Program-made: the position numbers and the translations under genes | Source of the DNA: an uncultured Sphingobacteriales bacterium | GTDB taxonomy: Bacteria; Bacteroidota; Bacteroidia; Chitinophagales; Chitinophagaceae | Assembly: GCA_937871285.1 (NCBI GenBank) | Contig: CALMQS010000124.1 | Coordinates: forward strand, 2,233-66,232 | DNA: 64,000 bases | Direction of reading: 5' to 3' | Notes under the pieces: model-generated | Told to the model about the DNA's origin: nothing | Databases searched by the model: none | Seen by the model: the letters and a program-made list of their open reading frames with translations, nothing else | In this document: positions 9,647-14,495 of the stretch, piece after piece | Layout of the letters: the number at the start of each line of letters is the position of its first letter | How positions within the stretch are numbered: position 1 is the first letter of the stretch

Positions 9647-11365
9647 TTAGTATCCCGGGTTCTGGGCAATTCCCAAATCGTTGCCCGACAATCCTTTCGG
9701 AATAGGGAAACGATAGAACTTGCCGCTAATATTTTGTGTTTTTGAACGGAGATGCTTATGCACTTTCGCGAAAAACGGGTAATTTGTTTTAACACTTCCC
9801 GCGGTACCATCACTTTCAGGACCAAACTTAGCAGCAATAGATTCTACAGAACTGTAATCATCCTTGTAGTACTCGAATTCCGGTACATCTGTAAGTATGG
9901 TATTAACCAATTTTCTCCAACGTACCAGGTTAGACCAATGTCTTTGCTCAAAATACAGCTCGAGATACCACTCTTTTTCCAGGTGATCCTGTGTAATTGT
10001 ACTGTATTCACTTACCCCCGCTCTGCGCCTTAATTGATTAATTACCTGTGCTGCTTCAGTTGCTTTACCTAATTGAAGCAGTGCTTCGGCTTTGATCAGC
10101 AAAACTTCGGCATAGCGGATTTCAATGCGGTTCATATTATTGGGCTGGGCCGCTTCTGAACCCGGGGCAACATCCGTGAGTTTTGCATTACGGTGCACAA
10201 ACTTGCCAATACGTGGTGAAGTAACCGGGAATATATAGTCATATTCTTTATAGTCCGTTGCTTTTGTTGCAGGTGATGCAACCGGTTCATCCTGGTTATA
10301 CAATTTTGTGAAAAGTGAATAATGCTTACGTTTATCATTATCCGGGAAACGGTTAACTAATGAAACATCAGCCGGGCCGATATGGTTATCCTGATAAAGA
10401 TCAAAACGGAAAGTGAACGGGCAGTGCGTTTGGTGATTGCCCTGTGCATCACCCAGGCCGTCTCCATCATGATGAATGGTGAAAATATGTTCAGGCGATT
10501 TGTTTTCAGCGGGCACACCGAAATTACTTTCAAAATTATCTTCCAGCCTGTAGTTACCGCTATTGATCACTTTATCGGCATACTCAACGGCTTTCTGCAG
10601 TTTGGCTGCGTCCCAGGCAGCGGCTGCGGGGTCTGACTTACCGCCTGCGATGGCAGCCACTTCAGTTTGTGATAGCGGCTTACTTGCCCATGCCAGGTAT
10701 GCTCTTGCCAAAAGCGCATTGGCAGCGCCTTTGCTTGGGTTAGAACGGATCACATCGTATCCCGGCAAGGCAGCTTCAGCTTCTGTAAAATCTTTTACGA
10801 TTTGTGTGTACACTTCATCAATAGACTTACGGGATGTTTGTTCGGCCGAAGACGGAGTTGAAGTTAATATGAGCGGTACCTCACCCCAAAGATTTACAAG
10901 ATAAGCATAACCCTGTGCACGGATGAATTTTGCCCTCGCTCTTGCCAGGTCTATACTGGACTGGCTCAAATTATTACCGGCACTGCTGGAGTCGGCTTTA
11001 CCTATCGTTCTGTTGGCTTCACCTATACTCACATACAGATAATTGAAGATTTTTGTAGGATACCAGTTATTGACATCTGTCTTTAGCTGGCTCACCAATG
11101 GTCCGTCTGCATCATCAGCACCTTCAAAACTGATTGTATGCTCACTGGTAGATTCCAAAAGAAATGAAAACGAAGAGCTCAATCTTTGCCAGGGCGGGAA
11201 AGCAGCATTGGCTGTTGCCAATGCTTCCTGGTCGGTTTTCCAAACTGATTCTCCTGTAATTACGTCCGGAGGATTTCCTCCTGTTGTATCCTTTTTGCAG
11301 GAGTAGCCTGCCAAAGAACCAACTGCAATAGCTGTAATAGCTAACTGTTTAAGGGATTTTGTCAT
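9647..11365 (-). CDS. SusD/RagB-family lipoprotein (Met/Cys-poor)
   Basis: Lipobox GYSC; WGEVPL; RYAEVLLIKAEA; QNPGY end; only 2 Met and 2 Cys in 572 aa. Confidence 0.95.
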   Translation of the reverse strand: MTKSLKQLAITAIAVGSLAGYSCKKDTTGGNPPDVITGESVWKTDQEALATANAAFPPWQRLSSSFSFLLESTSEHTISFEGADDADGPLVSQLKTDVNNWYPTKIFNYLYVSIGEANRTIGKADSSSAGNNLSQSSIDLARARAKFIRAQGYAYLVNLWGEVPLILTSTPSSAEQTSRKSIDEVYTQIVKDFTEAEAALPGYDVIRSNPSKGAANALLARAYLAWASKPLSQTEVAAIAGGKSDPAAAAWDAAKLQKAVEYADKVINSGNYRLEDNFESNFGVPAENKSPEHIFTIHHDGDGLGDAQGNHQTHCPFTFRFDLYQDNHIGPADVSLVNRFPDNDKRKHYSLFTKLYNQDEPVASPATKATDYKEYDYIFPVTSPRIGKFVHRNAKLTDVAPGSEAAQPNNMNRIEIRYAEVLLIKAEALLQLGKATEAAQVINQLRRRAGVSEYSTITQDHLEKEWYLELYFEQRHWSNLVRWRKLVNTILTDVPEFEYYKDDYSSVESIAAKFGPESDGTAGSVKTNYPFFAKVHKHLRSKTQNISGKFYRFPIPKGLSGNDLGIAQNPGY

Positions 11366-11402
11366 ATTTTCTAATATTTAAGCAATTAATAAATGTATTT
11401 TT

Positions 11403-14400: not shown

Positions 14401-14495
14401 ACAATATGGTTTTGTGCCTGCAGCACTGAAAAACAAAGAAAGAGACCTGTAAATAACCATATTTTTTTTATACACACCCTAAAAAGAAAACTCAT
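11403..14495 (-). CDS. SusC/RagA-family TonB-dependent transporter (Met/Cys-poor)
   Basis: [49 protein letters not shown]; 3 Met, and both Cys in the signal peptide. Confidence 0.97.
   Translation of the reverse strand: [1030 protein letters not shown]

Follow-up and report, generated by a model that had tools for sequence, protein, structure and literature searches.

The DNA analysed here (hereafter the window) is a stretch of 64,000 nucleotides from an uncultured Sphingobacteriales bacterium, part of a contig of an activated-sludge metagenome, and it encodes at positions 9647 to 14495 a SusC/SusD outer-membrane pair (SusCD) from which methionine (Met) and cysteine (Cys) have almost disappeared. 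We think, with a probability of about 0.75, that this pair forms the centre of an outer-membrane module for sulfur acquisition, made when Cys, Met or S-adenosylmethionine (SAM) is low; the bulk components of such a module would have been purged of Met and Cys because the cell has to produce them in quantity at the very time when sulfur amino acids are in short supply.

Sulfur content of the pair

The two genes are the following:

11403-14495, minus strand: SusC/RagA-family TonB-dependent transporter of 1030 amino acids (TIGR04056, 812 bits, cutoff 368)
9647-11365, minus strand: SusD-family lipoprotein of 572 amino acids (Pfam SusD_RagB PF07980, E 1e-28; SusD-like_3 PF14322, E 6e-20)

The transporter also matches TIGR04057 (62 bits, cutoff 46) and the Pfam families Plug, TonB_dep_Rec_b-barrel and CarbopepD_reg_2, which places it in the SusC/RagA family, and the gene of the SusD/RagB lipoprotein starts 38 nucleotides (nt) past its stop codon. 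The Met residues of SusC are 1, 418 and 1018, and its Cys residues, 8 and 21, are both within the signal peptide, so that the mature protein (about 1000 residues) contains 2 Met and no Cys. SusD has two of each, Met1 and Met411, Cys23 (in the lipobox, ...AGYSC) and Cys315, that is, one Met, the lipid-anchor Cys and one more Cys (Cys315) in the mature form. These positions agree with the counts given for both proteins in the original prediction, which had been made by hand.

With Met plus Cys at 0.49% (SusC) and 0.70% (SusD), the two proteins have the lowest values among the 37 open reading frames (ORFs) of at least 150 codons in the window (median 3.1%). The other pair in the window, to which about 18 Met (SusC) and about 13 Met plus 3 Cys (SusD) had been ascribed, bears this out: its SusC (60468-63992) contains 19 Met and 2 Cys, and its SusD (58973-60451) 14 Met and 3 Cys if counted from a TTG start, or 13 Met and 3 Cys from ATG. 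As a wider background we used paralogues from other Bacteroidota genomes (69 SusC and 55 SusD), the scan of reference genomes with the SusC alignment having returned mainly paralogues, at 31-38% identity, among the matches listed. Mature SusC of the window, with 0.20% Met plus Cys, lies below all of them (median 1.40%, range 0.28-2.84), and so does mature SusD with 0.37% (median 2.20%, range 0.48-5.08).

Conservation among orthologues

The best 120 database homologues of SusC (118 of them full-length) were taken as its orthologues, and the SusD orthologues form a set of 76 sequences at 41-86% identity; a metagenome scan seeded with the SusD alignment led to 80 further loci with true orthologues. 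The loci fetched for comparison, 2.66 Mb in total, bear L numbers below. The SusC orthologues come from Chitinophagaceae, Sphingobacteriales, Dysgonomonas, Proteiniphilum, Prevotellaceae, Bacteroides, Paludibacter, Tannerella and Azobacteroides, the family being found in Bacteroidota of rumen, gut, termite gut, sludge and soil, and the identity of SusC across these orders is unusually high (53-83%).

The Met and Cys content of the orthologues, which the original prediction had proposed as a check, turned out to be low: all 118 full-length SusC sequences are poor in both residues (1-12 Met in the mature protein, almost no Cys, median Met plus Cys 0.40%), 71 of the 76 SusD sequences have no Met at all after the lipid-anchor Cys, and exactly one Cys besides this anchor is found in 73 of the 76. 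A sister clade, whose SusC is about 40% identical, shows the same depletion. This reflects selection and not inheritance, because with Met at its background frequency of 1.8% unconstrained drift would have put about 10 Met into each SusD by the time that identity had fallen to 41%; the low Met and Cys content is kept by selection in the orthologues, as would be expected of sulfur-poor proteins induced by sulfur starvation.

Relative to the background, Met falls to 0.31 in SusC and to 0.01 in SusD, Cys is likewise depleted, and no other residue falls sharply. Tyrosine is about normal (1.16 times background in SusC), tryptophan stands at 0.62 in SusC and is normal in SusD, histidine is enriched (1.5-fold in SusC, 2.3-fold in SusD), and leucine is up in SusC. 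That only the sulfur residues are affected argues against a general saving of costs, and also against a blanket avoidance of oxidisable residues.

The Cys that SusD keeps besides its anchor belongs to a motif, D-x-QGNH-[QH]-THC (DAQGNHQTHC in the window, ending in Cys315), which is present with its Cys in all 76 SusD orthologues, the stretch DAQGNHQT being a search seed, so that only the His-Cys after it is an unbiased part of this conservation. We think that this Cys, single and invariant, with two His next to it in a SusD that is free of sulfur elsewhere, must have a function. Residues 299-315 as a whole, HHDGDGLGDAQGNHQTHC, are almost invariant down to 41% identity, and join an Asp/Gly loop (which gave us the impression of a calcium-binding loop) to the H-x-x-H-C cluster.

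Regulatory elements

The palindrome TAGTCTAC-N7-GTAGACTA, called the operator below, has five matches in the window against 1.4 expected, and all five are located upstream of the module, of an operon with a PhyH-family gene, or of a gene for a pyridoxal-phosphate (PLP) enzyme with a SAM riboswitch. The elements and the genes concerned are:

14496-15133, minus strand: SusC leader, 638 bp, with operators at 14634-14656 and 14968-14990 and two short ORFs
14590-14619, minus strand: short ORF MNCCYRLFI of the leader (ORF reading)
14864-14938, minus strand: short ORF MKRSNHIDYSMSRCPLWLMSTLAL of the leader (ORF reading)
21422-21547, minus strand: operator (21525-21547), then short ORF MKKMLNTLRCSTPQK (21422-21469), upstream of a 764-residue receptor (motif scan and ORF reading)
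21711-21830, plus strand: SAM-I riboswitch (RF00162, 78.6 bits)
21929-23158, plus strand: PLP enzyme of Cys/Met metabolism, cystathionine gamma-synthase/lyase type (PF01053, E 3e-152)
3086-3108 and 3176-3198, plus strand: operators before the PhyH operon (motif scan)
3222-3272, plus strand: short ORF MNYPSHRFRCCCRLAT, CCC-type, behind these two operators
3359-4264, plus strand: PhyH-family Fe/2-oxoglutarate dioxygenase with 4 Met and 0 Cys (family match)
4270-5046, plus strand: short-chain dehydrogenase (family match)
2579-2650, minus strand: tRNA-Cys(GCA), about 430 nt from the operator at 3086 (tRNA prediction)

The two operators and two Arg-Cys short ORFs that had been claimed for the SusC leader are thus both there. 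Downstream of each operator in the window comes a short ORF whose core is Arg-Cys (MNYPSHRFRCCCRLAT, MNCCYRLFI, ..MSRCPLWLMS.. and MKKMLNTLRCSTPQK), and most operator copies, by our own reading of the sequence, lie about 10-20 nt upstream of a TAnnTTTG element, which we take to be the -7 promoter box of Bacteroidota. The riboswitch and its PLP-enzyme gene form a unit divergent from the gene of the 764-residue receptor, with an operator region common to both. The PhyH/dehydrogenase operon may encode an enzyme of desulfonation or one acting on sulfate esters, and the sulfur regulon may include the very tRNA that the Cys-codon short ORFs would sense.

Two hairpins are found around the riboswitch on the plus strand, one (gcaggcgcgatgctcctgc followed by ttttttt, 21565-21600) upstream of it and one (cgtctgatttatcggacg followed by agctttttt, 21876-21902) past the SAM aptamer, the latter being probably the riboswitch terminator (expression platform).

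In the fetched loci the operator, with 2 mismatches at most, occurs only in L084 to L087: before the riboswitch that heads the cluster in L084, twice before SusC in L086, once in L085 (plus a second copy at 3 mismatches), and in L087 before the genes of a TauE/SafE-family transporter and of a PhyH-like protein (20554-21360). SAM-I riboswitches stand between the promoter and SusC in L085 (71.7 bits) and L086 (73.7 bits, for a gathering score of 44.4), whose SusC proteins are 81% and 78% identical to that of the window; in L084 the riboswitch lies ahead of the whole gene string, directly before the 764-residue type of receptor, so that two of the three closest relatives have SAM-I in the SusC leader and the third has it at the cluster head. 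This third locus also has the same tRNA-Cys(GCA) after the module (15886-15957), with an operator copy upstream (15295-15317).

More distant members of the family present another picture. No riboswitch was found by Rfam in the Bacteroidales and Flavobacterium loci. The Bacteroidales leaders carry short ORFs made of Met and Cys codons (MRMRCCMLLY, MRMRCCMLY, MRMCCCS[I/M]SC, MRMCMCR, MRCCMAR and MAMCCCMPMYMYMYMYM), and those of the sister clade (Flavobacterium, Mucilaginibacter) carry MC[I/F/S]CC and MKT..CC[C/S]K, or MFACTRCCCC. A strong terminator follows MAMCCCMPMYMYMYMYM; L088 is the only locus in which a clear terminator is seen after the short ORF. Cys-codon short ORFs are present in 8 of 16 leaders of the family versus 4 of 65 leaders of paralogues. 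We infer from the presence of these ORFs that the pair may be controlled by attenuation, no terminator/antiterminator pair having been defined.

In L008, L009, L013 and L020, about 130-165 nt upstream of SusC, the second Cys short ORF, of the MKT..CC.K type, ends 5 nt before a conserved 10-bp hairpin; the Flavobacterium sister-clade hairpin reads GCCATTTCTG-N6-CAGAAATGGC and has an A-run at the 5' side, the 3' side being free of a U-run.

Gene neighbourhood

On the minus strand the genes follow each other in the order siderophore-type receptor, BNR-like protein, HMA receptor, 638-bp leader, SusC, SusD, DUF4625 protein, TlpA-like protein, DUF6029 protein and Omp28. Besides the pair and its leader, the string consists of:

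19075-21369, minus strand: siderophore-receptor-like TonB-dependent receptor, 764 residues, first of the string (family profile matches)
17858-19102, minus strand: BNR-repeat-like protein, 414 residues with 8 Cys (weak match to PF13088, BNR_2)
15134-17749, minus strand: TonB-dependent receptor with an N-terminal HMA domain (GNCEMC; family matches)
9031-9495, minus strand: DUF4625 lipoprotein, 154 residues, with a C-terminal HEHEH (PF15418)
8912-8959, minus strand: short ORF MKKEKCCRSCSNFAG, in the gap of 163 bp that separates the DUF4625 gene from the TlpA-like gene (ORF reading)
8385-8867, minus strand: secreted TlpA/ResA-like thiol-disulfide oxidoreductase, 160 residues (Pfam AhpC-TSA, Redoxin)
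6801-8384, minus strand: DUF6029 protein, possibly an outer-membrane barrel, 527 residues (PF19494, E 6e-164)
5938-6873, minus strand: Omp28-family lipoprotein (PF11551)

All nine genes are together in L084-L086, in the same or in a permuted order, and form one tight string in L084, where the HMA receptor is within the same string as SusC. The Parapedobacter-type loci L003 and L087 have the six genes that run from SusC to Omp28; in these two loci the DUF4625 gene overlaps the TlpA-like gene, which in L003 points to one operon. Synteny is also seen gene by gene, for the BNR-like gene in L084-L086, for the DUF4625 gene in L003 and L084-L087, and for DUF6029 and Omp28 in the relatives. Low sulfur content is shared by the DUF4625 protein (1 Met and 1 Cys, only the lipid-anchor Cys being kept in the mature form) and by the TlpA-like protein, which has a single Met, none of it in the mature form, and no Cys other than its CxxC pair.

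For B. thetaiotaomicron it has been proposed that lipoproteins of the DUF4625 family act as lids on TonB transporters other than SusC (bioRxiv 10.1101/2023.03.17.533168), and for this reason that of the window may serve one of the two other receptors. The short ORF MKKEKCCRSCSNFAG may exert control within the operon, over its TlpA-DUF6029-Omp28 part. Weak NCBIfam matches link the TlpA-like protein and Omp28 to selenoprotein versions of their families (ResA-like WAxxUGC and Omp28-related selenoprotein, respectively), which hints that this trio (5938-8867, minus strand) might be a redox-active unit of the envelope. As for the HMA receptor, it has Cys-Cys pairs at residues 109-110 and 242-243 and a His-rich loop, HTGHTDEPGEPGHDHGEPG; the Bacteroidales have its HMA part as a secreted protein on its own, of 105 residues, with the gene beside those of the receptor and SusC.

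The original prediction had also stated that no carbohydrate-active enzyme (CAZyme) adjoins the pair, and the Pfam annotation of the neighbours upholds this: beside the window pair there is no Pfam glycoside hydrolase, lyase, esterase or other CAZyme family, the weak BNR_2 match, three genes upstream, being the only one that is loosely glycan-like. No glycan-sensing regulator is linked to the window pair either, its leader containing operators and short ORFs only; an extracytoplasmic function (ECF) sigma factor with FecR precedes an orthologue only in the Parapedobacter-type loci L003 and L087. The window locus therefore has neither of the two marks of a polysaccharide utilization locus (PUL), co-located CAZymes and a linked glycan sensor.

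The neighbours of the orthologues in Bacteroidales (clade A) include an SDF-family carrier (20 loci), an APC/BcaP-like amino-acid permease beside SusCD (13 loci), an NhaC-type carrier (9 loci), Cys/Met PLP enzymes (10 loci), an SDH_alpha family protein that is possibly cysteine-desulfidase-like (7 loci), cysteine synthase CysK beside SusCD (6 loci, 474 bits) and, directly upstream of SusC in 20 loci, a sulfur-poor periplasmic PstS-like protein. Also found there are HMA proteins together with a TonB receptor (11-14 loci), homologues of the HMA receptor adjoining the pair in 14 loci, and TlpA-like proteins. Several partners in the related loci are themselves sulfur-poor: the PstS-like protein contains 2 Met and 1 Cys, a porin 1 Met and no Cys, and CysK no Cys. 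Two sulfatases are encoded after SusCD in the sister clade, the first of them sulfur-poor as well; between them come, in this order, a fatty-acid-hydroxylase-family protein, a rhodanese-thioredoxin fusion and a YeiH-type membrane protein. We had considered the PstS, PstC and PstB neighbours as a sulfate transporter and dropped the idea, since NCBIfam assigns them to the phosphate family.

A second sulfur-poor SusCD is encoded just downstream in L084 (16908-21653), with a SusC of 1065 residues (9 Met, 0 Cys) and a SusD of 498 residues (1 Met, 1 Cys).

Proposed function of the module

The module might work as follows. In the organism of the window, a repressor-type factor would bind TAGTCTAC-N7-GTAGACTA over the promoters, and the short Cys-codon ORFs at the start of the transcripts would probably add a control via charged tRNA-Cys; in close relatives the SAM-I riboswitch would have that control role, and in Bacteroidales the Met/Cys-codon leader peptides. 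SusD would capture a sulfur-bearing nutrient at the cell surface and SusC would pass it to the periplasm with TonB energy, where the secreted TlpA-like protein (in other lineages sulfatases or the rhodanese-thioredoxin fusion) would process it. Inner-membrane carriers of the amino-acid type (SDF, APC and NhaC in the relatives) would then import it, to feed CysK and the cystathionine-type enzymes. We infer this route from the functions of the families and from the gene neighbourhoods. The induction by sulfur limitation is a prediction from cis-regulatory proxies, namely the SAM riboswitch of orthologous leaders, the Cys/Met-codon short ORFs and the shared operator.

The original prediction spoke of the import of an organosulfur compound rather than a glycan. 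The conserved depletion, the riboswitches, the short ORFs, the operator and the neighbours all speak strongly for sulfur acquisition; the word "organosulfur" does not stand to the same degree, other sulfur species fitting as well. Our tentative first guess, against which the odds are still somewhat the greater, would be a compound of the cyst(e)ine or methionine type, or else a small thiol peptide, because amino-acid carriers adjoin the orthologues. An oxyanion-type or reduced inorganic sulfur compound comes next and seems rather unlikely to us, being suggested by the PstS-like protein, the sulfatases, the rhodanese and TauE. The spread of the family over many habitats makes it likely that the substrate is a common sulfur currency in these communities.

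A broader proposal, which we would regard as doubtful, although a little less so than the inorganic substrate, is that these pairs are a phylum-wide, hitherto undescribed class of SusCD dedicated to sulfur acquisition, with proteins stripped of sulfur, in which the invariant SusD Cys of the D-x-QGNH-x-THC site would hold the substrate (by a mixed disulfide, a persulfide or a metal) and in which sensing by Met/Cys leader peptides would be interchangeable with a SAM riboswitch or a sulfur-regulon repressor.

Several observations weigh against sulfur acquisition and should be acknowledged together. The single metatranscriptome of the source sample has no contigs on the region. In the SusC leader of the window, Rfam finds no riboswitch even at E<=1 (chance matches only), and a terminator scan finds no recognisable intrinsic terminator; the folds of four leaders are not significantly stable (z-scores from -1.9 to +0.6), and MNCCYRLFI is not conserved in the closest relatives. 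No candidate gene was found for the factor that would bind the operator. Sulfur depletion is not seen in three members of the string, the DUF6029 protein (8 Met, 5 Cys), the BNR-like protein and the HMA receptor, and the PstS-like, PstC, PstA and PstB homologues of some loci are phosphate-type by homology. The signs of metal binding, discussed now, count on the same side.

Alternative explanations

The pair could serve in the uptake of a soft metal (Cu, Zn) or of a metallophore, Met and Cys being avoided against accidental binding and the H-x-x-H-C of SusD being a metal site. The HMA (CxxC) domain, fused to the neighbouring receptor or encoded by a separate gene in 11-14 related loci, agrees with this idea, as do the His-rich loop of the receptor, the HEHEH tail of the DUF4625 protein, the His enrichment of SusD with its D-x-QGNH-x-THC in all orthologues, and the YtkA-like lipoproteins of related loci. 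However, all the regulatory devices that we found point to the sensing of sulfur amino acids (SAM riboswitch, Met/Cys short ORFs, and an operator shared with Cys/Met and TauE genes), no match to a metal-sensing riboswitch family came up in the window or in those related loci that were scanned, the genes nearby encode sulfatases, CysK, cystathionine enzymes and carriers for amino acids, and the periplasmic and cytoplasmic partners are sulfur-poor too. We consider metal uptake improbable on these grounds; it could coexist with sulfur acquisition, for example if the substrate were a metal-thiolate complex.

It might also be that Met and Cys are avoided in proteins that are exposed to oxidants (HOCl, H2O2), with a thioredoxin-like partner for repair or protection, and indeed TlpA-like and thioredoxin-fold genes recur beside the pair and Trp is somewhat low in SusC. 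We find this very unlikely, given that Tyr is not depleted, that His is enriched and Trp normal in SusD, that the other SusCD of the window, equally exposed, is not depleted, and that the cytoplasmic CysK and the periplasmic PstS-like partner are sulfur-poor as well; the regulation, moreover, appears to respond to sulfur amino acids. Equally hard to believe is a general minimisation of costs in a very abundant protein, unrelated to sulfur: abundant proteins do tend to avoid costly residues, but here costly Tyr and His are not reduced and the sharp fall is restricted to the sulfur residues. Least credible of all is an inherited composition, or chance, in an ordinary SusCD for glycans or peptides, for, even if Cys is scarce throughout the SusC proteins (background mean 0.08%) and the Met count is as low as 5-7 in a few unrelated paralogues, the absence of mature Met from most SusD orthologues, where about 10 would be expected, the equal depletion in the sister clade with its sulfatases and Cys-codon short ORFs, the lowest rank among the window ORFs and the independent support from sulfur-linked regulation all speak against it.

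Comparison with known systems

Sulfur-poor proteins that are induced by sulfur starvation are well known, for example Sbp/CysP and the Tau/Ssu proteins of E. coli and Pdc6 of yeast; the sulfur-poor alternative phycobiliproteins of cyanobacteria were reportedly described by Mazel and Marliere in 1989, and sulfur sparing in such proteins is said to have been surveyed by Baudouin-Cornu et al. in 2001. The window pair resembles them in being depleted of Met and Cys, in the conservation of this trait in orthologues and in its link to sulfur-responsive cis-elements. It differs from them in that the carriers of the trait are the SusC/SusD outer-membrane pair of Bacteroidota and its partners, a class of proteins for which the papers searched contain no such report.

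As in the classical Sus-like PULs, a SusC/RagA transporter and a SusD lipoprotein are encoded side by side and have the TonB box, plug and lipobox, and the best match of SusC among solved structures is a SusC homologue (8aa4_A, E 2e-148). These PULs contain glycoside hydrolases, and their regulator is a hybrid two-component or an ECF one, whereas no CAZyme is adjacent here and control would fall to an operator with short ORFs, a SAM riboswitch or leader peptides, and not to glycan sensors. RagAB of Porphyromonas gingivalis (PDB 6sli) is a SusCD-type importer of peptides and not of glycans: RagA matches with E 3e-89, and amino-acid carriers adjoin several of our orthologues. RagAB is not orthologous to the window pair, and to our knowledge it is neither sulfur-poor nor sulfur-regulated. 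Searches of solved structures with SusC, SusD and the DUF4625 protein returned paralogues only, and no orthologue whose ligand is known.

With regard to regulation, the SAM-I (S-box) regulons of methionine biosynthesis and transport offer a parallel, RF00162 being located upstream of SusC in L085 and L086 and upstream of the cystathionine-type gene in the window; unlike in these regulons, the window's own SusC leader is without it. Pseudomonas has in SftP (ats/sft cluster) a TonB-dependent receptor for the uptake of sulfate esters and sulfonates. The likeness lies in the use of a TonB-dependent outer-membrane system for a sulfur source when sulfur is limiting, as proposed here, and in the sulfatases of the sister clade; SftP, however, belongs to an unrelated receptor family, has no SusD partner and is regulated otherwise. 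Polycysteine short-ORF attenuators have been described in mycobacteria (bioRxiv 10.1101/834739), and a Cys-codon upstream ORF precedes cysS in Rhodobacterales (PMC8632094). Our short ORFs are like these in having tandem Cys codons at the 5' end of sulfur- or cysteine-related transcripts, and unlike them in belonging to another phylum and to outer-membrane importer genes, and in that Met and Cys codons are often mixed.

In the literature searched we found no report of a sulfur-poor or sulfur-regulated SusCD family, no paper in which a SAM riboswitch and SusC occur together, and no report of Met/Cys-codon leader ORFs in Bacteroidota. Sulfur sparing as such and SusCD importers of compounds other than glycans (RagAB) were already known. 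A SusCD is usually read as a glycan importer, and, if our interpretation is true, this family shows that the same Bacteroidota design also scavenges sulfur, and that amino-acid composition alone can flag sulfur-scavenging systems in raw sequence. One operon with three replaceable sulfur-sensing devices (operator, SAM riboswitch, Met/Cys leader peptides) is also a compact test bed, and the identity of the substrate would fill a gap concerning the sulfur supply of anaerobes that depend on reduced sulfur, such as Prevotella and Bacteroides.

Further short ORF in the window

No operator was found near the intergenic short ORF MKRGCCIRYTKY (36670-36708, plus strand), nor near the gene that it precedes, which encodes an FGE-sulfatase-domain protein (37007-38215, plus strand; PF03781, E 3e-76). 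This is the fourth intergenic tandem-Cys short ORF in the window, and three of the four are upstream of genes tied to the module or to the regulon. In L011 a gene with an FGE-sulfatase domain comes next after SusD.

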